Positions 3,526 to 62,576 of a DNA stretch of 64,000 nucleotides are shown here, piece by piece. The translations under genes were made by a program, and so were the position numbers. The stretch is from Candidatus Poribacteria bacterium. GTDB lineage: Bacteria > Poribacteria > WGA-4E > JAJDTR01. The stretch's first letter is position 1. Each line of letters starts with the position of its first letter. Where the stretch lies: the NCBI GenBank assembly GCA_965222225.1, contig CBDCTK010000002.1:4032001-4096000 (forward strand). The letters are read 5' to 3'. A model generated the notes under the pieces. It saw nothing but the letters and a program-made list of their open reading frames with translations, searched no databases and was not told the DNA's origin.

Positions 3526-3713
3526 GATCAAGCGAGCGATTAGAGAGTGCGGTAGAGATTCTACCAGCCTTTAAATGCCACAGAGTGGGATTAAGTGAGG
3601 AGTAGCAATCAATGAAACGGATAGTGACAGGAATTTCTATGGGAGCCCTATCGCACTGACTATGAGATCTTCTATCGCCTTCGCTATTCACTCAGTTGAT
3701 CGATAGGGATTCC
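3526..3713. mobile_element. VB-unit cluster: decayed unit 3526-3562, plus a minus-strand unit (3607-3713) split by plus-strand units
   Basis: aatcaatgaaacggatagtgac [aggaatttctat gggagccctatcgcactgactat gagatcttctatcgccttcgctattcactcagttgatc] gatagggattcc. Confidence 0.75.
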
Positions 3714-10450: not shown

Positions 10451-10548
10451 AACGCTTAATATCAATGATTTAGACTGTTAGGCCTTATGCAGCCACATAG
10501 AGGTCGCGATTCGGAGATCGCTCCTACAAAGGGAGATTCATCTAGATA

Positions 10549-16863: not shown

Positions 16864-19390
16864 ACGATGCCCTTTTCCAAATCTCTTGGACAGTTTGTTT
16901 CAACTGAAATTCCGAAAAGATTGCGCTCGTCTGCTTGAGTTGCTCCCCATACAGGTAAGTACGTGATTGATGCAACTTGCGTTTCTCGGATGGTGTTGGC
17001 AAGAGTTGCACTACCTTCCCGGAAGATTGTTCCCGACTTTTAATCAACTTCAATTCTTCGAAGATGCCTATCCCGTTACAAACCGCATCGGGCGGAATCG
17101 AATTCGTGCGGGCTGCCGCAACCACCTCGTCCAACCGGATCGGCGCGTCGCTCTGAGAACCCAAGGATGTTATCGTTTGATACAATTTCTTCAGCGTCTC
17201 TTCGTCCGGATATTGCCACGATAGCAAGGTGTGCATGGAATCGGCATCTTTCGCACTGTAGATGAGATGGATATAGGTCGTTTCCGGAAATCTGAACGCC
17301 GGTTGACACCGATTAAAGAAGATTAGAGGTGTGGACACCGGATGGCAAAACACGAGATGTTTCGCGCTTTGAGACGCCGCCATCAACGTCCGACTTGTGA
17401 CGATTGCGAGCAACTTTCCATTTCCAAGCGTGTCTACCAGACCTTCGATTTCCGACTCCGACGTTGCATCATCACACCTACCTATCAATTCTGTTTGCGG
17501 ACCGATTAAGTCCAAGAATCGGTCTATCGCTTTTCCGTCCCGCACATAGAAAACGATAGGTTCTTCTTGTTCGAGGAGTTTCGAGAGATACGCCTTTTTG
17601 TCCGTGTGCCGCCGATCAACCAGCTTTACGGGACTATCCGTATCCTCCGTTGGAAACACGACTTGACGTTCGTGACGGTCGATTTTGCGGATGTCCTTGA
17701 TTGCCAACTGGGGCGAACTCCGTCCATTCCAATCGTTGATTTGAGGTGCACCAGCCAGATCGACGCATACGTTCTGTCCTCTCAACGCGATTTCGTAATC
17801 TGCCATCCCCCATCCTACCGCATCCAGCGCATGCCGTCCATCCGTCACATACAATTTTAGGTGTTGCTTCTCTTTGCCCATCCGGAGCGGCGGACGCTGG
17901 AGAACGAGTCCCCGGATTGCCAGTTGAGGCGCGGGATTGTCTTGGCCGAAGGGCTCCAGCAGATTTAGCTCCCGAATTGCGTTCAACGCGAGGAAAGACG
18001 CTTGCGCCTCGAAATCTATATCCAGTTTGGGAACGAGGTCCTCCTCCGATAGGTGTTCGGACGCATACTCGTTGAAACACTCCCTGAATTCCTCGATTTT
18101 TTCCGTTTCAATCGTTAATCCTGCCGCGGCTTGGTGCCCGCCGTGCTTGACCAGTAAATGCGTAGCGGCATTCAAACTGTCCGCCAAATTCAGTCCTTCA
18201 ATACTGCGTCCGGAACCGTGCGCTTCACTGCCATTGATTGCCAACAGAAAAACCGGGCGATGGTACATCTGCAGAATGCGTGAGGCAACAATCCCGACCA
18301 CTCCTTGATGCCAACCCTCCCGAGCTAACACCAACCCCTTGGCTTCATCGAGATTGACCGACCTCTTGACCAACTCGATTGCCTCCTCACGAATTCTGCC
18401 TTCGACTTCCCGTCGCTCCGTGTTGTTGGCATCAAGTTCCTCGGCAAAAGGAAGTGCCGCTTCATAGGATTCTGCCGTGAGCAGTTCAACGACCTTTGAA
18501 GCCGTGTCCATACGTCCGGCAGCATTGATGCGAGGCCCAAGCACAAATCCGAGTGTATGTCCGACAATAGGCTTGTTCTCGCTGAAACCGGCGACCTCGC
18601 ATAGCGCGTGAATCCCCGGACGTTTCCTATTATTGATTTCCGCCAGTCCCAGCTTGGTGAGCGTTCGATTTTCCCCCGTCAGCGTAGCCATATCGACGAC
18701 AGTGCCGAGGACGACGAGATCGAGTTGGTCAATGAGCGGTTGCGTAGGTTCGCCGCCTCCCATCAAGCCGTGAGCGAGCTTAAACGCCAGACCGACACCC
18801 GCCAAGCCATCGAGCAGGTACTCGCTATCCGCCATCTTGGGGTTAATGACGGCATGCGCGGAAGGCAACGCATCCGGAGGCGCTTGATGGTGATCGGTGA
18901 TGATGACATCCATTCCGACGTCATTCGCGAGTTTCACCTCGTTTACTGAGGTAATCCCGCAATCGACCGTGATGACGAGATCGCACCCCTTCGCTTTTAG
19001 ATCCTTCACGGCTTCTTGGTTCAGACCGTACCCCTCCCTAAACCGATCAGGAATGTAGTAGCGCACGGGCGCATCAAGCTCGCGAAAGACGCTTAACAGC
19101 AGCGCGACAGCGGTAGTGCCATCGGTATCGTAGTCGCCGTAGACCCAAATCTGCTCGCCTTTTTCTCTTGCCGCGTGAATTCGATCCACAGCCTTCTCCA
19201 TATCGTGCATCAGGAACGGATCGTGCAGATTGGAGAGAGTTGGGTACAGATACGTCTGCGCCGTCTCTACCGTTTCAATGCCGCGATTGACCAGCAGTTG
19301 CGCGACGAGTGGGGACACTTCAAGCCTCACCGCCAATGCGGAACTCTTCTCAATGTCGGGGGATTTGACTCGCCACTCCTTCTTCGTCAT
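16841..19390 (-). CDS. recJ: ssDNA exonuclease RecJ with long C-terminal extension
   Basis: GDYDTDG, TVDCG, TDHH, PRINAAGR, GGHQAAAG, LEPFGQDNP. Confidence 0.95.
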   Translation of the reverse strand: MTKKEWRVKSPDIEKSSALAVRLEVSPLVAQLLVNRGIETVETAQTYLYPTLSNLHDPFLMHDMEKAVDRIHAAREKGEQIWVYGDYDTDGTTAVALLLSVFRELDAPVRYYIPDRFREGYGLNQEAVKDLKAKGCDLVITVDCGITSVNEVKLANDVGMDVIITDHHQAPPDALPSAHAVINPKMADSEYLLDGLAGVGLAFKLAHGLMGGGEPTQPLIDQLDLVVLGTVVDMATLTGENRTLTKLGLAEINNRKRPGIHALCEVAGFSENKPIVGHTLGFVLGPRINAAGRMDTASKVVELLTAESYEAALPFAEELDANNTERREVEGRIREEAIELVKRSVNLDEAKGLVLAREGWHQGVVGIVASRILQMYHRPVFLLAINGSEAHGSGRSIEGLNLADSLNAATHLLVKHGGHQAAAGLTIETEKIEEFRECFNEYASEHLSEEDLVPKLDIDFEAQASFLALNAIRELNLLEPFGQDNPAPQLAIRGLVLQRPPLRMGKEKQHLKLYVTDGRHALDAVGWGMADYEIALRGQNVCVDLAGAPQINDWNGRSSPQLAIKDIRKIDRHERQVVFPTEDTDSPVKLVDRRHTDKKAYLSKLLEQEEPIVFYVRDGKAIDRFLDLIGPQTELIGRCDDATSESEIEGLVDTLGNGKLLAIVTSRTLMAASQSAKHLVFCHPVSTPLIFFNRCQPAFRFPETTYIHLIYSAKDADSMHTLLSWQYPDEETLKKLYQTITSLGSQSDAPIRLDEVVAAARTNSIPPDAVCNGIGIFEELKLIKSREQSSGKVVQLLPTPSEKRKLHQSRTYLYGEQLKQTSAIFSEFQLKQTVQEIWKRASYECRNSN

Positions 19391-19646
19391 GATGAAGTTA
19401 TACTATCATGAACCGGAAACGCCGTCAAGAGTAAGAACAATGGCAATCAGGGGAAACGCGTCTGATTGTAGGCATCCAAGTGACCAAACGAAGGGAGATC
19501 AAGCGACTGGAATGGGTAGCAACTTAAATTAATTCTAACGCTTTCTGTCACTTGGCAAACACTTTTCCACGTTGCGAGGAAGATATGAATTGCCGTATCA
19601 TTATCATGATTTTCTTTCGAGTACAGGAAAAACGAGGGCGCGGTGT

Positions 19647-19752
19647 GGATCTCTATGGAAATTCTATCGCCCTCACTATTCGTTCGGTTGATCGCTCCCT
19701 ATGGGATATACTGTCAAGTTTGCTATCGCCTTCCTTATCCAGTCAGTTGATC
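19647..19752 (+). mobile_element. VB-unit cluster inside a ...CTCGCCCCTAC REP
   Basis: ggatctctat ggaaattctatcgc-cc-tc-ac-tattc-gt-tc-gg-ttgatc ... ctatcgc-ct-tc-ct-tatcc-ag-tc-ag-ttgatc. Confidence 0.8.
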
Positions 19753-19827
19753 CTCGCCCCTACGATTAGGTGTTTCTCGGCGAATGTCAGGACGGGATAC
19801 ATGGCTTAATTAACCCCGGAGGAACAG

Positions 19828-20910
19828 ATGAGAGCTGCACGTTTTTATGGAGGTAAAGATATTCGAGTCGAAACTGTGCCGGAGCCAGAGCCGGAGGAGC
19901 GCGAGGTACTCGTTGAAGTCCAAGCAACCGGCATCTGCGGCAGTGACCTGCACGGCTATCACCATCAGCCGGATAAACCACGACCCCCTGCAACAGGCGG
20001 ACACGAACTCACGGGACGAGTCACCGGCGTTGGGGTGGCGGTTCGTCAATATCAGATCGGCGATCAGGTCGTCGTCGAGCCGATAGTCCCATGCAACAAT
20101 TGCCCTGAATGTCTAAACGGCAATTACAATCTGTGTTCAAAGCTCATTCATATCGGCGGTTCCAGAGGAAAACGTCTGGGCAATGTTTTCAGCGGGGGCT
20201 TTGCCGAGTATATGGTTGCGCCCGAAGATAACGTCTACGAATTACCTAATCGGGTTTCGTTCGAGGCGGGAGCAATGGCTGAAGTTTACGCCGTAGCCGT
20301 CCACGCCTTGTCGATGGCGCCAGTCCATCCGGGCGATAGCGTGGCGGTCATCGGCAGCGGTCCGGTCGGTTTGGCGCTCGCGCAGATGGCGCAACTGGCT
20401 GGTGCGGTGTCCGTCGCTGTCTTGGGCAAACCGGACGCGCCGTTACAAATTGCCAAAGAGTCGATCGGCATCTTCCCGATTAACGTAGACGCAGCCGACG
20501 CGGTCGAGGCAGTCCAAGCGTGGACGAACGGTCGCGGCGCGAATGTCGTCTTCGAGGCGGTCGGCGGAAGGGCACAAACGCTTCAGCAAGCGACGCAGAT
20601 TGCCGCGATACGGGGGAAAATTTGTATGGTCGGTGGACACACCGGCGCGCTTGAGTTGGACACGCGGTTCGCAAGGGGTCGTGAATTGACCCTCACGTGG
20701 TCATTCTGCTACGGTCGGCGAGATGGAAAGCGGGAGTTTCAGATTGCGCTCGACCTGATGGCGGCCGGCAAACTCGACCCAATGCCGTTAATCACTCACC
20801 GTTTCCCACTAGATGAGATTCAACAGCCGTTTGCCGTCGCCGCCGGACGTGATGAACACGGCTCGGTGAAGGTTCTGGTATTGCCCTCCGACTCACACGG
20901 AGATCACTGA
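19828..20910 (+). CDS. Zn-dependent MDR alcohol/sugar dehydrogenase (copy 1)
   Basis: GICGSDLH, GHE, CxxCxxC-x7-C structural Zn site, GSGPVG. Confidence 0.92.
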   Translation: MRAARFYGGKDIRVETVPEPEPEEREVLVEVQATGICGSDLHGYHHQPDKPRPPATGGHELTGRVTGVGVAVRQYQIGDQVVVEPIVPCNNCPECLNGNYNLCSKLIHIGGSRGKRLGNVFSGGFAEYMVAPEDNVYELPNRVSFEAGAMAEVYAVAVHALSMAPVHPGDSVAVIGSGPVGLALAQMAQLAGAVSVAVLGKPDAPLQIAKESIGIFPINVDAADAVEAVQAWTNGRGANVVFEAVGGRAQTLQQATQIAAIRGKICMVGGHTGALELDTRFARGRELTLTWSFCYGRRDGKREFQIALDLMAAGKLDPMPLITHRFPLDEIQQPFAVAAGRDEHGSVKVLVLPSDSHGDH

Positions 20911-20921
20911 AAACTTCGAGA

Positions 20922-20993
20922 GATCAAATGAGCGAATAGCGAATGCGATAGAGATCCCTTCAAACGAGCGATTAGCGAACAGGATAGGTCTTC
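20922..20993 (-). mobile_element. VB unit (20922-20958) plus a decayed neighbour
   Basis: gatcaa-at-ga-gc-gaata-gc-ga-at-gcgatag-agatccc. Confidence 0.85.
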
Positions 20994-21223
20994 AGGGTTA
21001 AGTGCGAGAATGAAACTTGTTGCGGGAACACGCGTTTGCCCTATGAGTGCAAGTTGATTGCAATGATACCCAATATGGTTCTGGAGGCCCCGATGTATGC
21101 GCTCTTGACACAACTGCTTGACACTTCCAACTACCGGGTGGTTTCTGCCGTGATTACAACAGATATAGTCGTTTCAACCAAGATTTATGCATATAGGATT
21201 TACACTGTTCGGTTTGTAGTCGC

Positions 21224-21355
21224 GATCAAGGGAGCGAATAGCGACTGCGATAGGGATCTTAAATAGAGATCAGGATTTACTATGGGAGTTCTATCGCACT
21301 CATTATTCATTCGCTTGATCCATCCTTATCCAGTCGGTTAATCGATAGAATTCCC
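21224..21355. mobile_element. Mixed-orientation VB-unit cluster inside a GTAG...GCGCAATTYATTGCGC REP
   Basis: Flanks match the uninterrupted copy at about 52576-52640. Confidence 0.85.
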
Positions 21356-21416
21356 TTTATTGCGCGTCTTCTGTAGGAGCGAGTTCTGCTCGCGATAGGA
21401 GGTCGCGATTCGGAGA

Positions 21417-21453
21417 GGGATCTCTATCGCACTCACTATCCGTTCGCTTGATC
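21417..21453 (+). mobile_element. Clean single 37-bp VB unit in the REP GTCGCGATTCGGAGATCGCTCCTAC
   Basis: gtcgcgattcggaga [gggatctctatcgcactcactatccgttcgcttga] tcgctcctac; uninterrupted REP at about 10503, 28553, 31400, 34028. Confidence 0.9.
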
Positions 21454-21517
21454 GCTCCTACAATCCTTTGGATGCGTCACTGCGTAAGTCCTAAGTTCGA
21501 CGTTTTACGTTTGTAAG

Positions 21518-21678
21518 GATTAAACAATCGGATAGCGATCGGATAACGATCAAAATTTTCTATCGCACTTGGATGTCTATCGCACTAACTGTGGGATCTA
21601 CTATTAGGATTCACTATCGCACTCATTAGCCATTCGCTTGATCCTTCGCTATCCGCTCAGTTGATCGTTCCTTTGATC
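21518..21678. mobile_element. Large nested VB-unit cluster
   Basis: Several GGAT..CTAT heads followed by three successive ...TTGATC tails. Confidence 0.8.
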
Positions 21679-21865
21679 GCTCACCCCAATCTACAAGCCG
21701 CGAAACTCTATAAACATCGCTTTTTCTTTGTTATTTTGTAGAAAATCCCCGAAATTACGGGAGTTTCAGATTGAAATCCACTGGCAGATGTGCTAAACTG
21801 AAAGGTAATGCGCAATTATTTGGCACAAACACTCCACCCCCAAACTGTTTCAACGAGAGTGAACA

Positions 21866-22855
21866 ATGGGATCTAGCCAGAACTCAGCGGCACATTTGGA
21901 AAACATGCGGCACCGCCGCATAAATCGAATGAAGCGTCAAAGAGCAATTGAAATCGGTAAACCGGTTGATGTCTCTTTGAAACCCATGGCATTGAACTCT
22001 TTACAGAAGAAGGAACTTTCCGGGCTGCAACTGCACGCTCACGGCGACCAGAAACATCAGGGCGCGAAGCGAAGCAGGGCATCCGTATTGGCTTCCTTGG
22101 GGCTTCACGCGATTATGGTGTTTATTGCGGCATTCTACGTCGTCAGAACCACTCAAGTTGATGACGAGGCTGTCAGCGTCGACTTTTTTCAACAGATTCT
22201 GGAAAAACGCAATCCGCCTATACGGAAGGAGGTAGTAAAGCAGAAAGCACTGCCTACCGAGCCGCTTAAGCCAATAGTCCTACCGGTACCGAAAGTGCCG
22301 GTGCGTCCAATCACATCAGACAGCGAAGGCAGCTTAGGAGACCCTAGTATGGGAGGTCTTGTTGATTCAGGTCTCGTCGCGGGTGGTAACATAAACACTG
22401 GCGGTATTATAGATAACTTAGGACCCGTCAAGCCACCGACATTTGATACCGGCGATCCAACGGAGAGTTTCCGACCAACATTCGACGAAGACGGTCTGGG
22501 TGTAATTGGTGAGCCGCCAGACCTTGAGAATACTCCCGACGCCGACCTCACCGGCGGCGATGCCTTCAAGCCCACGGAGATATTAAGGCCGCCCAGTTTC
22601 CGCAATAAAGTCGAGCCGAAATACCCGAGCGCGGCGAAGCGCGCCGGGAAAGAGGGCAAGGTTGTTCTGATGGCTACCATTGGCGTGGATGGCAAGGCTA
22701 CAGACATTGAGGTGAAGGAGGACAAAGTTGGATTTGGCTGCGCAAGAGCCGCCATACGGGCTTTGAAATCCTCACGCTTCAACCCTGCCAAACGGGGTGG
22801 GGAGAGCGTTCCCCAGAGGATATCCGTTCCGTATACCTTCAAAATTGAAGAATAA
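21866..22855 (+). CDS. tonB: Energy transducer TonB
   Basis: SLGLH transmembrane motif, Pro-rich linker, PKYPSAAKRAGKEGKV...FNPAKRGG..V. Confidence 0.85.
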   Translation: MGSSQNSAAHLENMRHRRINRMKRQRAIEIGKPVDVSLKPMALNSLQKKELSGLQLHAHGDQKHQGAKRSRASVLASLGLHAIMVFIAAFYVVRTTQVDDEAVSVDFFQQILEKRNPPIRKEVVKQKALPTEPLKPIVLPVPKVPVRPITSDSEGSLGDPSMGGLVDSGLVAGGNINTGGIIDNLGPVKPPTFDTGDPTESFRPTFDEDGLGVIGEPPDLENTPDADLTGGDAFKPTEILRPPSFRNKVEPKYPSAAKRAGKEGKVVLMATIGVDGKATDIEVKEDKVGFGCARAAIRALKSSRFNPAKRGGESVPQRISVPYTFKIEE

Positions 22856-22966
22856 ACGCCTCGCCGGTACGGTCAACAAACGCGTAAAACACAGGTCACT
22901 TTGGACCCAAATTGACGCGCCTAGGTTTAGCAAAACCACATCCCGCCGTTTGAAGGAGGTCAAACA

Positions 22967-23838
22967 ATGAAATCCAGCCAAGGGATTTCTGTGGCACATC
23001 TGGAAACCGTACGGCAGCGTCGCATGAGGCGAATTCGGCGTCAACGAGCGATTGAAGTCGGTAAACCGGTTGATGTCTCTTTGAAAGCCATGGCGTTGAA
23101 CCCTACCCAAAAGAGGGTACTTTCCGACCTGCACGTCCAACCGCATGTCGACCAGAAGCATCAAATCATGACACCGAAACGCGTGTCCGTAATGGCTGCT
23201 TAGGGCTTCACCTAATCGCCGTACTGCTTGGATCCTATTATGTTCTTAAACCCGCCCGTCTTGATGCTGAGACGAAAAACGGTGAAATTGTCCACTCAAT
23301 CTGCGGTATCGGAGCACGCAGTCTCCCACCTCTTCAATTTTCAAGAACGCCAAATCCGGTTCCCTCGGGATTGGGGTGCATGGGCGGTAATCCATCGGGA
23401 AATTTTGTCCCTACTCCTGGTTATGAGAAAATTCGCCGCGACGCTTTCAGCTCTCTTGAAGTTACGAGACCGCCCAGTTTCCGCAAAAAAGTCGAGCCGA
23501 AATACCCGAGCGAGGCGAAGCGCGCCGGGAAAGAGGGTAAGGTTGTTCTGATGGCTACCATTGACGTGGATGGCAAAGCCAAAGAAATTGAGGTCAAGGA
23601 GGACGAGGTTGGATTTGGCTGCGCCAGAGCCGTCATACAGGCTTTGAAATCCTCACGCTTCAACCCTGGCAAACTGGGTGACGAGATTGTCCCCTACAGA
23701 ATAGCAATCCCCTATCAGTTCAAGTTGGAAGATGAAGTGACTCGCGCGAACCGTCAACAAACGCGCGTGAACCACAGGTCACCGCGAACGTCCATTGAGA
23801 GCGATCTCGTGAAGATAGTCGAAGTCGGTTGTTGGTAG
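22967..23838 (+). pseudogene. Degraded second tonB copy
   Basis: N-terminal RQRAIEVGKPVDVSLK and C-terminal PKYPSEAKRAGKEGKV match 21866..22855; stop codon and frameshifts in between. Confidence 0.85.
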
Positions 23839-24010
23839 AGAGAGTGTTTCCACAGGTTTGTCAAAGCAGACTAAAAGGCACTCCGATGCGTCATACTTTT
23901 TTCTATTGGCAAAATTGAACCCGAAATTCATTCTTGGGCAACCCTCTTAGCCTATAGCCGCGCCTCGGTTTAGAAAAACCACATCCGGCCCGCTTGAACG
24001 AGGCCAAGCA

Positions 24011-24212
24011 ATGAAATCCAGCCAGGACAATTCCACAGCACATTTGGGGGACATGCAACGGCGTCGCATGCAAGGAGGACAAGGTTGGATTTGGCTGCGC
24101 AAGAGCCGCCATTCAGGCTTTGAAATCCTCATGGTTCTACCCTGCCAAACGGGGTGAGGAAATCGTTCCCCAGAGGATAACCATTCCGTATACCTTCACA
24201 ATTGAAGATTAA
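24011..24212 (+). pseudogene. Third, internally deleted tonB remnant
   Basis: atgaaatccagcca start joined directly to aaggaggacaaggttggatttggctgc...attgaagattaa. Confidence 0.8.
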
Positions 24213-37566: not shown

Positions 37567-39574
37567 CTATTTCAAGATCAGCATCTTCCGCGTAGCGGAA
37601 AAATCCCCTGTGGTCAAGTGATAGAAATACACGCCACTTGCCACCCCTTCACCGAAGTTGTTGCGACCATCCCAGTACGCCGCCCTCCCCCGATCGGCAT
37701 AATACCCCGCCAACCGATGCCCCAAATCCAGCCGACGAACCATGAAACCACTGGCATCATAAATCGTCAGAGCGACCTCCGCATCTCTTGAGAGTTGGTA
37801 AGGTATCCACGTCTCCGGGTTGAACGGATTCGGATAGTTTGGCAACAATGCCGTCTCCTCTGGTGTCAAGGTGGCCTTGAGTTACTCTAGCAGCAGCACA
37901 CCCATTTGGGTCGTTGCATCCGTCAAGTCTAGCGTTTGCGCTTGAGCCAACCACTGTCCCACTTCTGTAGCCGTCAGCATCGCCAGTGCTCGTGGATCTG
38001 CGGACGGCGCCGCCGCGTTCCCAAACGCACCCGCAACCAACACCAAATCCAGGATGTTAACAACGCCATCCCTATTGACATCCGCCGCCAAGTCTGCCCC
38101 CGCATCGCCGAGATTCGACGCCACCGACACCAAATCCAAGATATTCACCACATCGTCCTCGTTCACATCCTCCGGAATCGGGGGAGGTTCGGCAGTTGCA
38201 TTAACGGACTGCTCCTCCAGTATCCCTGTTACAGATACAGTAACGGTGTTTATTCCCGGATTTGGTCCCAATGTTAGGATACTCTCCGCTCTACCGTTGC
38301 TATCGGTCATGGCGATTGTCGCACTGAGCGTCCCGCCGTCCGCCGTAACGGAGAATATGACCTGCGCACCTGGTAAGGGTTCGCCGGACTGGTCTCGCAC
38401 CTCCACCACAAACGCTTTTGCCAGCGCCGTCCCGGGCGCGCCCTGGTTGGTTGTCGCCCGAGATTATCTCCAATGACGTGGGTACTCGGACGCCTTCGGC
38501 GGTAAACGTCTGTTCACCCTGAACACCAGTTACAGTCACCACAACAGTGTTCGTTCCCGGTTCGGGATCCAACGTGAGCCTACTCTCTGCTCTGCCATTG
38601 GCATCAGTCGTGACGCTTGTCGCACTAAGCGTCCCACCCCCGCTGCTAACCGAGAATGTCACTTGAACCTCTGGTAAGGGTTGGTCGGATTGGTCTCGCA
38701 CCTCCACCACAAACGCTTTTTCAAGCGCCGTGCCCGGCGGTCCCTGTTGCTCGTCGCCCGAGATTATCTCTAGTTTCTTGGATGTCCGGATTCCTTCGGC
38801 GTTGAAGATTTGTTTTTCTTGAATCCCCGCAACAGACGCTTCAACGGTGTTTGTTTCCGCGCCTGGCCCTAACGTAAGAACGCTTTCCGTCCTGCCGTTG
38901 GCATTTGTCGTCGTGTTAGTGCTGCTGAGTGTCCCGCCGCCCGCCGTGACGGAGAATGTAACCGGCACCCCCTCAAACACAACACTATTCCCATCCTGCA
39001 CTTCAACGATAAACGGGCTTGCAAGTACTGCGTCAGGCGACCCCTCTTGGTCATCGCCTGAAACCATGCGAATTGTCCGGGGCATTCGGTTGTCGAAGAT
39101 TGCTTCAACCCCTCTTTCCTGTAAGGCAGGAATGTGTGTGCGGATGGATGCGTAGTTGAGTGAGTTTCCATGCACACCAACTTTGTCTTCACTCCCCAGC
39201 CCTGAGTTTGCTACTAGCGGCGAGAGGTCCGATATCGTGTTGCCCACAAGAGACAACCAAATCAGGTTGGTTAAGCCCGCCACAGGCGATATATCCGATA
39301 TCATGTTGTTCGCAAGGTTCAGGTTTGTCAGGTTGATGGCAAACTTCAACCCTGTTAAATTTCTAATATTGGCGTTTCTGGCTTCAAGGCGATCCAACGT
39401 TTCCATCTCGGCGGCGGTGATTGTGGCACCCGACGCTTTGTTGAGCGCCATCCCAATCGCAGCGCGGAGGTTGGAGTCGGGGATATCCACGACTTGTGCT
39501 GCTGTGGTTAGCGGTAGAGTAAGGAAAATTGACAGGAGAAAAGTGAATCGAAAAAGTTGTGTTTTCATTGACAT
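37567..39574 (-). pseudogene. Secreted LRR + Ig-like (Big_1) repeats + dockerin-like + T9SS-like C-terminal domain protein, disrupted
   Basis: Signal peptide, internalin-like LRRs, three SGDxQxG..VEV.D Ig repeats, DVNxDxVVNILDLV twice, NYPNPFNPET tail; +1 frameshift near 38445 (caa ccag ggc) and in-frame TAA at 37882-37884. Confidence 0.85.
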
Positions 39575-39965: not shown

Positions 39966-40098
39966 CCACGCTGGGGCTTAGATTCTTGGGTTTCGGCGTT
40001 TCTATAAACCTTCCGCCCCTCTGGGGCTTACAAAGGCTGGTGCGCAGTGCGCACCCTACGGGATTGCGCAAGAAAGAAATGGAGTTTTCAAGAAAAAA

Positions 40099-40135
40099 GG
40101 GATTTCTATCGCATTCGCTATTCGCTCATTTGATC
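40099..40135 (+). mobile_element. Single VB unit; empty-site homologue at 3714-3736
   Basis: ttttcaagaaaaaa [gggatttctatcgcattcgctattcgctcatttga] tcggtttc versus ttttcaagaaaaaactcggtttc. Confidence 0.9.
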
Positions 40136-44427: not shown

Positions 44428-44551
44428 CCTGCCCCGCATTGGAGAGACTTGATTAACGCTAAAAACGCACTGCAAATATAGGGAAATGGTCTAAGATGAA
44501 AACAATGTTCGGAAGTTTTCTGTCATCTGTGCACCTTGCCTCTCGAAGTTT

Positions 44552-45634
44552 TCAGTGACCTCCGTGTGAGTCGGAGGGCAATACCAAAACCTTCACCGAG
44601 CCGTGTTCATCACGTCCGGCAGCGACGGCAAACGCCTGTTGAATCTCATCTAGTGGGAAACGGTGAGTGATTAACGGCATTGGGTCGAGTTTGCCGGCCG
44701 CCATCAGGTCGAGCGCAATCTGAAACTCCCGCTTTCCATCTCGCCGACCGTAGCAGAATGACCACGTGAGGGTCAATTCACGACCCCTTGCGAACCGCGT
44801 GTCCAACTCAAGCGCGCCGGTGTGTCCACCGACCATACAAATTTTCCCCCGTATCGCGGCAATCTGCGTCGCTTGCTGAAGCGTTTGTGCCCTTCCGCCG
44901 ACCGCCTCGAAGACGACATTCGCGCCGCGACCGTTCGTCCACGCTTGGACTGCCTCGACCGCGTCGGCTGCGTCTACGTTAATCGGGAAGATGCCGATCG
45001 ACTCTTTGGCAATTTGTAACGGCGCGTCCGGTTTGCCCAAGACAGCGACGGACACCGCACCAGCCAGTTGCGCCATCTGCGCGAGCGCCAAACCGACCGG
45101 ACCGCTGCCGATGACCGCCACGCTATCGCCCGGATGGACTGGCGCCATCGACAAGGCGTGGACGGCTACGGCGTAAACTTCAGCCATTGCTCCCGCCTCG
45201 AACGAAACCCGATTAGGTAATTCGTAGACGTTATCTTCCGGCGCAACCATATACTCGGCAAATCCCCCGCTGAAAACATTGCCCAGACGTTTTCCTCTGG
45301 AACCGCCGATATGAATGAGCTTTGAACACAGATTGTAATTGCCGTTTAGACACTCAGGGCAATTGTTGCATGGGACTGTCGGCTCGACGACGACCTGATC
45401 GCCGATCTGATATTGATGAACCGCCACCCCAACCCCGGCGACCCGTCCCGTGAGTTCGTGTCCGCCTGTTGCAGGTGGACGTGGTTTTTCCGGCTGATGG
45501 TGATAACCGTGCAGGTCACTGCCGCAGATGCCGGTTGCTCGGACTTCAACGAGTACCTCGCGCTCCTCCGGCACCGGCTTTGGCACAGTTTCGACTCGAA
45601 TATCTTTACCTCCATAAAAACGTGCAGCTCTCAT
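44552..45634 (-). CDS. Zn-dependent MDR dehydrogenase (copy 2, inverted near-identical paralogue of 19828..20910)
   Basis: Same length (1083 nt) and same upstream ttaaccccggaggaacagatg; 9 aa differences by eye. Confidence 0.92.
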   Translation of the reverse strand: MRAARFYGGKDIRVETVPKPVPEEREVLVEVRATGICGSDLHGYHHQPEKPRPPATGGHELTGRVAGVGVAVHQYQIGDQVVVEPTVPCNNCPECLNGNYNLCSKLIHIGGSRGKRLGNVFSGGFAEYMVAPEDNVYELPNRVSFEAGAMAEVYAVAVHALSMAPVHPGDSVAVIGSGPVGLALAQMAQLAGAVSVAVLGKPDAPLQIAKESIGIFPINVDAADAVEAVQAWTNGRGANVVFEAVGGRAQTLQQATQIAAIRGKICMVGGHTGALELDTRFARGRELTLTWSFCYGRRDGKREFQIALDLMAAGKLDPMPLITHRFPLDEIQQAFAVAAGRDEHGSVKVLVLPSDSHGGH

Positions 45635-46057
45635 CTGTTCCTCCGGGGTTAATTTAACGTGAGTTCGACGTAAGAAGCTACGTGACGAGTGATGAGTGAT
45701 AGGTGAATTTTCACCTCTCACTCCTCCCAGATTTTGTCGGCATATTTGAATGAATGCGATGGTATCGACACCAGCGGCACTGTGTCGGGGACGACCACTG
45801 AAGGTGACGATGCCGCTGGACGAAGCAGAGCGTCACGAATGGCAGGCCATGTCGAGTTATGACTCGTTTGCGTGGCTTGCCAGCCAACTGCGCCAAGCAT
45901 TAGAGCCATGGCAGCGTGGCTCTGGATGGCAATTGAGCTGTCCCAAGGCATCTCGCCAAACCATCGAAGCAGTTGTGGTGTACGAAAGTTCCTTTCCCCG
46001 TCTAATATTGGCGATTCTGACGCCGACGTTTTTCAGCCCCTTGGTTTCGGGCGATAC

Positions 46058-48065: not shown

Positions 48066-48137
48066 GGGATCTCTATCGCGTGGGATCTACTATCGCACTC
48101 CCTATTCGGTCGTTTGATCCTATTCGGTCACTTGATC
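48066..48137 (+). mobile_element. Two-level nested VB insertion in a GGTGCGGTTAGA/CGCACCTAC REP
   Basis: gggatctctatcgcgt [gggatctactatcgcactccctattcggtcgtttgatc] ctattcggtcacttgatc. Confidence 0.88.
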
Positions 48138-48734: not shown

Positions 48735-49439
48735 ATGAAGAAATTCGCATTTACAATGTCAGCAGTTTTCGTGCTATTGAGTGGTATTGTGATAATGATA
48801 AATCCATCGGCGCAAGAGACCGAACTAGCGCAGATCGTCTTCCACTCCAATCGGGACGGGAATAAAGAAATCTACGTCATGGACGCCGATGGGAACAATC
48901 TACGCAGGTTAACAACAAATCTATGGGCTGATTCCGATCCGGCATGGTCCCCTGATGGCCAAAAGATTGTCTACCATTCCACGTGGCGTGGGCGCCCTAC
49001 AGTCTTCGTCATGGATGCCGATGGTAACAATCAACAAAAGTTAACAAACAATAAAATTAGAGCGTTTGATTCAAGTCCGGCGTGGCCCCCTAGCGGTCAA
49101 AAGATTGCCTTAGTCTCCACCCGTGATGGCAACAAAGAAATCTACGTCATGGATCCCGACGGCGAGCATCAACTCAGACTAACAAACAATAAAAGGGATG
49201 ACAACTATCCAGCCTGGTCACCTGACGGTCAACAGATTGTTTTCGTGTCTAGGCGGGACGGGAACTTTGAAATCTACGTCATGAATTCCGATGGGAGGAA
49301 TCAAACTAGGCTGACAAACAATCCCGCTACGGACAGCGAACCGGCTTGGTTCGATCCCCGTTTTGCACGGGCGGTGGAGCCTCCAGGTAAGTTGAAGTCT
49401 ACCTGGGGAAAGATCAAGGGATATCAAAGGAAGGAATGA
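48735..49439 (+). CDS. Secreted TolB-like (PD40 repeat) protein
   Basis: Signal peptide; SNRDGNKEIYVMDADG..LT repeats, WSPDG; C-terminal AVEPPGKLKSTWGKIK. Confidence 0.85.
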   Translation: MKKFAFTMSAVFVLLSGIVIMINPSAQETELAQIVFHSNRDGNKEIYVMDADGNNLRRLTTNLWADSDPAWSPDGQKIVYHSTWRGRPTVFVMDADGNNQQKLTNNKIRAFDSSPAWPPSGQKIALVSTRDGNKEIYVMDPDGEHQLRLTNNKRDDNYPAWSPDGQQIVFVSRRDGNFEIYVMNSDGRNQTRLTNNPATDSEPAWFDPRFARAVEPPGKLKSTWGKIKGYQRKE

Positions 49440-61724: not shown

Positions 61725-62576
61725 ATCTGAATAATTCGATACTTTAAGCCTTGAGAAGAAACGAGGTGCCAACGCGCTCAAACTGCCCCACCGAAAGGCC
61801 CGCCCTCTCTTGAAGCTCACTATATTAGCCATGCGTCCCCGTAGGCAGGCATCATCTCGGTTATGGCTAGGAGTCATCGTTAATGTCATCTAGCTTTTAT
61901 TGGCGTTCGGCTGTCTTCTGAACCGGCGGTAGCATCCGATCGCACACGCTTCCCTTCATCAAATGCCTCCTTCAACTGCTCAAACCACTTTGCTTCATCA
62001 CCGCGATTATATGGCGTCATTTTATCCTTGTTCTCGCCCGGCTATGTCCTTTCAGACATAATGGCAATCTCTAAGTTTCACTTTGTACAAGAGTGCAGTA
62101 ATGAATACAATTTGTGGCAGACCAATCGCACCTAATTCTAAATGTGTAGGAACCTGTGATTATCAAATCAAGATGGAATCCATGATCATGTTGTAGGGTG
62201 CGCACTGCGCACCAGCCTTTGAAAGCTCCAGCGGGGCGACAGGTTTCGGACATTGGGTTTCAAGCCCACATTAAATGACCAAGGACGGCTTGCCCCTATT
62301 ATTCAATCAATCACTAAGCAACTTTCAGCAACTTTCAAGAATAAACTTAAATTTCGGTCTACCTCCAAACCGCTCCTGCTGGATTAACAAATCCAGCCGC
62401 TATTTATGTATCCATTTCGCTTTGAGCCTTTCGCTCCGGAGGATTAAGGGTAGCGTGGAAGCGAACCTTCCACTCCTCCATCCTTCCAATCCCATTCTTC
62501 CTAGTCGTTTCAGAAGATAAATTTCAATACTGAAACGTGCTTGTTTGCGTCAATCGCAACAAATGGAGTTTCTGCT

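Follow-up and report, generated by a model that had tools for sequence, protein, structure and literature searches.

A window of 64,000 nucleotides of a Candidatus Poribacteria genome (GenBank assembly GCA_965222225.1, contig CBDCTK010000002.1, positions 4,032,001 to 4,096,000 of the forward strand) was analyzed with regard to a short repeat unit at 21417 to 21453; positions are those of the window unless a contig is named. The unit carries four variable dinucleotides, here called slots, between conserved scaffold bases, and an initial annotation of this DNA had proposed that the slots obey a V-B rule (first base not T, second base not A). The strand that reads GATCAA n1n2 GA n3n4 GRATA n4'n3' GA n2'n1' GCGATAG is referred to as the GA strand, and its opposite as the TC strand. 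The copy at 21417 to 21453 interrupts a repetitive extragenic palindrome (REP) tagged with GTAG, in the order GGTCGCGATTCGGAGA, unit, GCTCCTACA. The parts of the locus are the following.

21417..21453, minus strand: the unit; plus strand GGGATCT-CTATCGC-AC-TC-AC-TATCC-GT-TC-GC-TTGATC, minus strand GATCAA-GC-GA-AC-GGATA-GT-GA-GT-GCGATAG-AGATCCC
21448..21453, minus strand: 5' box GATCAA (TTGATC on the plus strand), with the consensus base at each of its six positions in 1238–1347 of 1368 units
21431..21447, minus strand: 17-nt hairpin core, defined by covariation and folding
21431-32 (AC), 21435-36 (AC), 21442-43 (GT) and 21446-47 (GC): slots of the core, plus-strand letters
21433-34 and 21444-45: TC dinucleotides, corresponding to the tandem G·A of the GA strand; loop at 21437-41
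21424..21430, minus strand: 3' box GCGATAG (CTATCGC on the plus strand)
21417..21423, minus strand: tail AGATCCC (GGGATCT on the plus strand), whose GATC is able to pair with that of the 5' box
21401..21416, minus strand: half of the GTAG-tagged REP (family D18), GGTCGCGATTCGGAGA, split by the unit; uninterrupted copies lie elsewhere in the window
21454..21462, minus strand: other half of the split REP, GCTCCTACA, which is TGTAGGAGC on the minus strand

Copies of the unit were searched for in the whole genome (5.70 Mb in two contigs, 49.8% G+C), which includes the window, using the 16 conserved scaffold positions only and ignoring the slot letters, with the reversed genome as a control. With zero, one, two and three scaffold mismatches, 595, 483, 290 and 285 matches were obtained (approximately 1,650 in total), and the control gave 0, 0, 3 and 35. 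The slot statistics were calculated on units with up to two mismatches, that is, 1368 units (5472 slots) in the genome and 36 units (144 slots) in the window. The V-B rule was obeyed in 137 of the 144 window slots, for a genome dinucleotide background of 0.541 (binomial p = 2.7e-28), and in 5248 of the 5472 slots genome-wide (95.9%). T at the first position (2.5%) and A at the second (1.7%) both stayed below the average deviation of a scaffold position, 4.9%, so the rule is as strong as the conservation of the scaffold itself and is not ordinary drift, as had been claimed. Compliance fell with scaffold decay (98.7, 96.5, 89.1 and 74.7% at zero, one, two and three mismatches), and the exceptions noted at 3526, 3607 and 21518 were decayed copies, as described. 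The strand symmetry of the rule was borne out, and the slot letters quoted by the initial annotation at 21417, 40099, 19671 and 48097 were read correctly. The list of nine permitted dinucleotides stood only in part: V-B is general, but CG was nearly absent from every slot (6, 2, 3 and 3 occurrences in the four slots, 1368 units each), and the inner two slots used six dinucleotides only (VY and RB on the GA strand).

Contrary to what the earlier count of codes implied, the slots were not independent; they are two arms of a small hairpin partly held by G·A mismatches. The mutual information was 1.51 bits between slots 1 and 4 and 1.50 bits between slots 2 and 3, with a permutation null of about 0.09, and the 0.41–0.48 bits found for the other combinations reflect sub-families. 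In the 36 window units, standard pairs were present in 90.4% of the cells, compared with 55.2 ± 3.4% after shuffling (none of 500 shuffles reached the observed value) and with at most 52.9% when the partner was slid by one to three columns; the covariation score was 1.022, compared with 0.336 for shuffled units, and double changes were seen in all four pairs. Among the cells that were not Watson-Crick on the GA strand, G·T was found 579 times and A·C 158 times. Between the paired dinucleotides GA faces GA on the GA strand, and TC faces TC on the other one. The GA-strand unit, GATCAA-nnGAnn-GRATA-nnGAnn-GCGATAG, contains four Watson-Crick pairs, each of them stacked on one G·A (A5·G23, G8·A20, A9·G19 and G12·A16). 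When the 595 units with a perfect scaffold were folded with ViennaRNA, the minimum free energy (MFE) structure was the proposed fold in 480 of the GA strands as RNA and in none of the TC strands. Base pairing of slots 1/4 and 2/3 limits the possible Watson-Crick stems to about 54, of which 37 were observed, in place of the 9^4 = 6561 codes calculated previously. The 1368 units carried 392 distinct codes, the commonest of them 69 times and the commonest 5' arm in 106 units, which makes the units poor barcodes, contrary to what had been suggested. The strand symmetry of V-B is explained in the same way, since the stem has two-fold symmetry. In the proposed structure, the stack on the GA strand would run from an A·G pair through two Watson-Crick pairs, a tandem sheared G·A/A·G and two further Watson-Crick pairs to a G·A closing an RAU triloop. 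The four slots would be the four Watson-Crick pairs, whose identity would be free as long as pairing is kept, giving the covariation.

To describe the pairs next to G·A, X was defined as the base 5' of the mismatched G and X' as the base 3' of the mismatched A. The four pairs behaved alike when read as X-X', and their sum (5472) was made up of C-G (2114), U-A (1378), G-C (879), U·G (563), C·A (129), A·C (29), G·U (16) and A-U (8), with the loop-closing pair being stricter (G-C in 2 and A-U in 1 of 1368). Pyrimidine-purine (Y-R) closure, that is, C-G, U-A and U·G, accounted for 4055 of 5472 pairs (74%). Neighbouring pairs were also restricted: (5'-GGAC-3')2 around the tandem GA was observed 0 times for 49.3 expected (p = 3e-27) and slot CG 0 times for 58.8 expected, while the non-adjacent control pair was observed 113 times for 76.4 expected. 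In relatives, V-B was obeyed in 882 of 908 slots of loci like those of the same genus and in 99 of 100 slots of a second genus, and A-U was absent from both. One orientation rule, together with base pairing, thus replaces V-B, which is the same rule read slot by slot. As U·G is common and G·U excluded, it is T 3' of a mismatched A that is primarily barred, and the absence of A 5' of G follows from pairing. G-C and C-G are both abundant though two transversions apart; therefore, the lack of A-U results from selection and not from mutational access. In mechanistic terms, the base 3' of each mismatched A would never be T, and hence the base 5' of each mismatched G would never be A, and neighbouring pairs would not both be G-C in the purine-5' sense. 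What appeared to be a hypermutation code becomes a structural statement backed by about 5,500 natural observations: next to G·A, C-G, U-A, U·G and isolated G-C are tolerated, whereas A-U, G·U and doubled G-C are not. The earlier suggestion of a binding or cleavage constraint was right in its direction, as the constraint is structural, but the form that it takes is base pairing and pair orientation next to G·A.

These observations can be compared with what is described for G·A pairs in oligonucleotides. According to the accessible text of one study, RNA tandem 5'-GA-3' closed by CG, AU, UA, UG or GU is sheared and only (GGAC)2 is imino (PMC5900564). In the available part of another, sheared tandem G·A in DNA is described for pyrimidine-GA-purine tetranucleotides, and DNA hairpins can be built of alternating G:C and sheared G:A pairs (PMC10085684); melting data in an excerpt of a third indicate very strong GA-AG stacking (PMC8163305). 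The missing (GGAC)2 and the 74% of Y-R closure would fit selection for the sheared geometry. The CGAG-block hairpins and tandem sheared motifs of these reports share with the unit the alternation of Watson-Crick and sheared G·A pairs, the preference for pyrimidine-GA-purine and, for the unit, the absence of the (GGAC)2 imino context; as far as their accessible text goes, they concern oligonucleotides or single loci and do not predict the complete lack of A-U, whereas the unit is a genomic repeat family (PMC10085684, PMC5900564, PMC8163305). The exclusion of A-U is not predicted by RNA data or nearest-neighbour energies and is closer to the DNA Y-GA-R rule. A thermodynamic explanation was rejected, the forbidden A-U orientation carrying no energy penalty, and an orientation rule that such energies do not predict provides a data set for modelling non-canonical pairs. 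The Y-GA-R rule in DNA is said to go back to the work of Cheng et al. and of Ebel et al. in 1992.

Taken with the turnover described below, the unit is best read as the core of a REP-like mini-element of about 37 nt (GATCAA, the hairpin, GCGATAG and an A(G/A)ATCC-type tail), whose GA strand folds as a single strand, whose slots are free but paired, which obeys the orientation rule at G·A and which turns over quickly; the probability of this reading is estimated at roughly 70%. The folded form would more likely be single-stranded DNA than RNA, the scaffold and the pairing would be kept because an enzyme copies well-formed hairpins only, and the orientation rule would reflect the sheared G·A geometry read by this enzyme. 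An unlikely alternative keeps the same hairpin but has T and A barred by the avoidance of a motif and not by G·A stacking: a further AT or GAT beside an exposed A would imitate the GAT of the terminal boxes, a cleavage or binding site, or give rise to a GATC site for methylation or restriction. Every V position follows a scaffold A, so that T always gives AT, and GAT at two of the four; the scaffold has AT nowhere but in GATC, RATA and GATAG; across the genome, GATC is under-represented (observed/expected 0.57), and the energy models leave the exclusion of A-U unexplained. Avoidance of GAT/ATC, which the initial annotation had offered as an example, nevertheless covers only the two pairs flanking the tandem GA, since T at pairs 1 and 4 would give AAT and TAT, and the exclusion is alike in all four. 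Neither the loss of (GGAC)2 and of CG slots nor the loop-closing pair restricted to Y-R is predicted by it.

The distribution of the family was examined in reference genomes, in which a scan with a 30-nt unit pattern gave at least 101 stretches; among the matches listed, all were metagenome-assembled genomes (MAGs) of Candidatus Poribacteria. The same pattern gave no matches in viral contigs, and no matches to Rfam 15 at the gathering threshold were found in the 64-kb window. In a sample of 31 genomes of the order, including the source genome, strict copies numbered 370–930 in each of the 10 genomes of the same genus (595 in the source genome), 145–162 in all 4 genomes of one genus from another family, and 0–2 in the other 17. 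The unit-rich genomes were 14, all of genera g1 and g4, and two further genomes had 1–2 strict matches. This is a new repeat family for an uncultured phylum, with some 1,650 copies of about 37 nt in a 5.7-Mb genome, or approximately 1% of the DNA, and it bears on the assembly, strain typing and genome plasticity of sponge symbionts.

Comparison of 91 syntenic spacers revealed 86 units in the relatives, a count inflated by the choice of loci that held a unit, and 53 in the source genome, and none was shared in both strand and code. Arrays of 7, 4 and 3 units were missing in the source genome at flank identities of 97, 91 and 93%, and two congeners differed by one 23-nt hairpin module and one 13-nt module. 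Where both orientations occurred in one spacer, 98 blocks were convergent and 14 divergent, with the GATCAA ends outward. The plus orientation prevailed in the left third of the spacers and the minus orientation in the right third, and as this pattern was the same in all four arrangements of the flanking genes, transcription direction is not its cause. Copies turn over quickly; they nest at the loops or feet of REP hairpins of other types as well as of one another, and the arrays that they build have their GATCAA ends facing outward.

A function selected by the host, as a structured RNA or a protein-binding site (protection of mRNA 3' ends, termination or nucleoid binding), is quite improbable in view of this record of absent shared units and of whole arrays present or absent between close relatives. 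It would be in keeping with the mostly intergenic location of the copies (genes, from crude calls covering 82% of the genome, contained only 199 of the 1368 units, leaving 85% outside), with the tolerance of G·U, which suits RNA, and with RNA-library contigs that span unit-bearing stretches, although contigs alone do not show transcription. REPs elsewhere have also been proposed as RNA elements, in the accessible part of one report (PMC3733652). By contrast, orientation tracks the position in the spacer and not gene direction, the GA strand being on the sense strand in 453 cases and on the other in 368, a small majority only; Rfam gave no match, and copies are nested inside other repeats.

Nesting was observed at several levels. 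Uninterrupted copies of the REP split at 21417 to 21453, of about 34 nt each, were found in the window at 10498, 28548, 31395, 34023 and 34162, and GTAGGAGC precedes 27 units. Four runs over 19300-22300 yielded short-read contigs only, breaking at repeats, and some of these contigs skip 35 nt of the unit (21414 to 21450), which most likely stems from the uninterrupted REP copies elsewhere. GTAG was present at most 12 nt upstream in 249 of 1078 units, in two REP types and at fixed places, and the commonest code was carried in one GTAG-REP type. In a GC-rich REP, empty and unit-filled sites coexist, with the units at the hairpin foot, and units also nest in each other at the foot of the hairpin, resulting in 23-nt tandem arrays and inverted pairs. 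The stem codes of close plus/minus pairs were identical in 0 of 41 cases, and such pairs therefore cannot form a long hairpin. Further copies in the window, including those quoted by the initial annotation, are the following.

21297..21343, minus strand: two tandem units, 23-nt period
21620..21666, minus strand: two tandem units, 23-nt period
21224..21247, plus strand: unit of opposite orientation on the left side of the spacer that holds 21417-21453, its GATCAA end toward the flanking gene
20922..20945, plus strand: unit abutting the end of a duplicated 1115-nt segment
39942..39965, minus strand: unit belonging to a 145-nt composite repeat, in which it is nested at the hairpin foot of a GC-rich REP
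40112..40135, minus strand: quoted unit AT-GC-GC-AT
19670..19693, minus strand: quoted unit CC-AC-GT-GG
48096..48119, minus strand: quoted unit AC-CC-GG-GT

The REPs involved are themselves abundant. The GTAG REP family of the GTAGGAGCGATCTCCGAATCGCGAC type had 134 genome copies at up to 4 mismatches and is often split by a unit at its central GATC, and a second GTAG REP, GTAGGGTGCGCAnTGCGCACC, had 290 copies at up to 3 mismatches. The latter is often adjacent to the GC-rich hairpin REP CTATA(A/C)ACCT(G/T)TCGCCCCnnnGGGGC, as at 40006-40059 and 62193-62246 of the window. The largest arrays of units were located on contig C2, outside the window. The array at C2:1578224-1578735 consists of ten units on one strand, five of which form a 38-nt tandem where the 14-nt tails are identical and the stems differ; the array at C2:2705782-2707143 extends over 1.3 kb and comprises 17 units of mixed orientation.

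It is similarly doubtful, and judged to have little chance of being right, that the units are passive passengers spreading only within GTAG REPs, REPINs and larger composites moved by REP-associated tyrosine transposases (RAYT), with recombination as the source of their diversity. The units just downstream of a GTAG tag, the commonest code riding on one GTAG-REP type, the fixed place of the unit in the 145-nt composite family, the existence of chimeric stems and the fact that GTAG REPs share the orientation bias against GC skew all speak for it. Three quarters of the units, by contrast, have no GTAG nearby, the same REP types occur both with and without a unit, different stems fill the same site, units nest in one another, and genera with related Y1 genes and the GC-rich REP are entirely without units.

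The composite family was sampled as 20 copies picked on the identity of their body sequence. The body was 93.9% identical and the unit scaffold 93.7%, whereas the slots reached 65.1% and an adjoining 9-nt module 65.7%, which agrees with the previous claim that slots vary more than the scaffold. Changes in the 9-nt module, the stem and the junction go together and mark out sub-lineages, and chimeric stems occur; in one regional sub-family, a stepwise series from U-A through U·G to C-G was found. Targeted hypermutation, that is, misincorporation on an ancestral AT dinucleotide by a diversity-generating retroelement (DGR) or another templated process, as the initial annotation had considered, is hardly credible, for although the slots are far more variable than the body related by descent (0.651 and 0.939 identity), tandem copies with identical 14-nt tails bear different stems (in a genome-wide tail set picked by exact match and thus biased) and one weak reverse transcriptase match exists (RVT_1, 27.5 bits), independent mutagenesis can neither produce complementary arms nor account for G·U outnumbering A·C or for the ban on combinations of neighbouring pairs, the variation in the composite family is that of a whole cassette and not of scattered point changes, and about 1,650 dispersed targets are ill-suited to a system of template and variable repeats.

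The search for an enzyme was focused on Y1 (HUH) transposases, for which five matches were found in the source genome, three of them with units on both sides. The vicinity of any mobile DNA was rich in units, whose positions and orientations varied from one Y1 homologue to another. The only intact IS200-like Y1 gene is flanked by GC-rich REPs, one of which carries a nested unit; in genera without units, its homologues have just the GC-rich REP on their flanks. Other Y1 clades were present in 3, 4 and 14 of the 31 genomes; none matched the 14 unit-rich genomes or had a fixed arrangement of units. Among the five genes and their homologues in 30 relatives, no consistent flanking arrangement or phyletic match was detected, and none of them was retained as the cognate enzyme. 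The intact gene encodes a 157-aa protein at C2:3080258-3080728, outside the window, with the GC-rich REPs inverted on either side, and short remnants of its C-terminal coding end recur across the genome. Two broken-looking RAYT-like Y1 genes were also detected (C2:3088808-3089350 and C2:3727372-3728017), one with an in-frame TAG and the other split over two overlapping frames.

In its mobile behaviour, the family resembles a REP- or SDR-like element of very small size (SDR, small dispersed repeats). A more specific version is advanced only tentatively and is more probably wrong than right: the unit may represent a new class of ultra-small (about 35–40 nt), autonomous-looking mobile hairpins, recognised purely by their G·A-mismatch architecture and not by their stem sequence. 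Such a hairpin would travel in single-stranded form and enter other hairpins, those of its own kind among them, at the loop or the foot, by means of an enzyme that is no canonical REP-linked RAYT. If this were true, the freely covarying stem would be a heritable tag for each lineage, and the family a natural record of the pair orientations tolerated by sheared G·A stacks in vivo.

Several results weigh against the reading of the unit as a rapidly turning over, single-stranded mini-element. The cognate enzyme was not found among the five Y1 genes and their homologues in 30 relatives, where there was no phyletic match. Comparison of REP sites with and without a unit, of tandem modules and of inverted pairs revealed no consistent target-site duplication or junction and no common target word, and left an uncertainty of a few bases in the insertion boundaries. 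Part of the pattern could come from recombination or gene conversion among copies, and chimeric stems were seen. The hairpin is weak (mean MFE of -2.2 kcal/mol as RNA), and the 51-nt context of the 21417-21453 copy folds no better than shuffled sequence (z = 0.45). ViennaRNA gives A-U and U-A near-equal energies with both RNA and DNA parameters, and A-U closure in RNA still yields sheared G·A in the accessible text of one study (PMC5900564), so that neither accounts for the A-U exclusion. The GA strand lay on the strand with negative GC skew, rich in C, in 188 of 292 and 253 of 343 single-orientation clusters (about 64–74%; chi-square 91.7), and GTAG REPs had the same tendency against the skew. 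The IS200/IS605 model expects the opposite skew sign for the active strand. The skew is moreover patchy, changing sign at least eight times along the 5.6-Mb contig C2, which points to many inversions or an assembly mosaic in a repeat-rich genome, and because of these changes leading and lagging strands were left unassigned.

The family was then compared with known systems. The sub-terminal hairpins of IS200/IS605 elements are read as single-stranded DNA by Y1 HUH transposases. The unit shares with them one folding strand, an irregular hairpin, short conserved flanking boxes and an orientation linked to GC skew, and its GATCAA/TTGAT boxes are presumably similar to the short words that serve that family for cleavage and as targets. 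Unlike them, it has no linked transposase found, and neighbouring units are often inverted and not direct ends; its skew bias is of opposite sign to that of IS608. The SDR of Nostocaceae are reportedly dispersed elements of less than 40 nt that nest in other repeats (SDR5 inserting in HIP1, GCGATCGC), keep their secondary structure by compensatory changes and differ between close genomes in a way that suggests mobility, and no enzyme is said to be known for them. The Poribacteria unit agrees with each point of this description (about 20–40 nt, nesting, compensatory changes and differences between close genomes), and its insertion at the GATC of the GTAG REP parallels that of SDR5 in HIP1. It differs from the Nostocaceae repeats in phylum, in sequence and in being built on G·A mismatches, and also in its strict pair-orientation rule and outward-facing arrays. 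The Nostocaceae repeats were reported by Elhai et al. 2008 (Genome Res 18:1484), as cited in the available part of PMC5861425.

REP and REPIN sequences mobilised by RAYT form GTAG- and CGTC-tagged superfamilies with an unpaired tag at the end of the palindrome, as described in the accessible text of PMC3733652. Judged by the accessible parts of two reports (PMC3733652, PMC3116915), the unit shares with them the nature of short intergenic hairpin repeats in hundreds to thousands of copies; inverted neighbours are frequent in both, compensatory changes preserve the hairpin, and the distribution is lineage-specific. At about 37 nt, it also agrees with REPs in size and abundance (20–40 bp palindromic, high copy, mostly extragenic). 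By contrast, it has no REP tag of its own, since its flanks are GATCAA and GCGATAG and the nearby GTAG belongs to the interrupted host REP, and it does not form the long hairpin of two inverted REPs that characterizes REPINs. Moreover, its stem consists of four Watson-Crick pairs interleaved with G·A pairs and is almost free in sequence, with no master sequence, and it sits inside GTAG REPs of the same genome, with no cognate RAYT found among the Y1 genes tested. With DGR it shares only variable positions beside conserved neighbours. The combination of a reverse transcriptase with template and variable repeats differing at adenines was not found; the unit has no template/variable repeat pair, its variable positions are paired, it occupies about 1,650 dispersed non-coding sites, and the letter excluded at the first position is T and not A. 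In the main texts of the literature on Poribacteria repeats, only mentions of CRISPR and general REP papers were found, and the unit was not described. The family is best filed with the REP/SDR kind of small structured repeats.

Additionally, other repeats were observed in the window. An inverted duplication of 1115 nt with 98% identity (19808-20922 and 44540-45654) bears a gene for a 360-aa zinc-dependent alcohol dehydrogenase. The open reading frame (ORF) of this gene at 19828-20910, beside the units, had been suspected to be a REP-targeting insertion sequence, a candidate discarded once it was identified as the duplicated dehydrogenase. Hairpin units directly adjoin the duplicated segment at its ends, an arrangement suggestive of recombination between repeats. 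GATC (observed/expected 0.57) and GGCC (0.34) were the most under-represented 4-nt palindromes of the genome, and this hints at past or present restriction pressure, though the units bear GATC at both ends. Finally, direct repeats were found as three copies with a period of about 300 nt (38202-39046), as four copies with a period of 132–138 nt (48806-49322), and at 21884-24212, where they measure 140–300 nt, are spaced by 476–1104 nt and lie in or near ORFs; these groups may correspond to repeat-domain proteins or paralogues.

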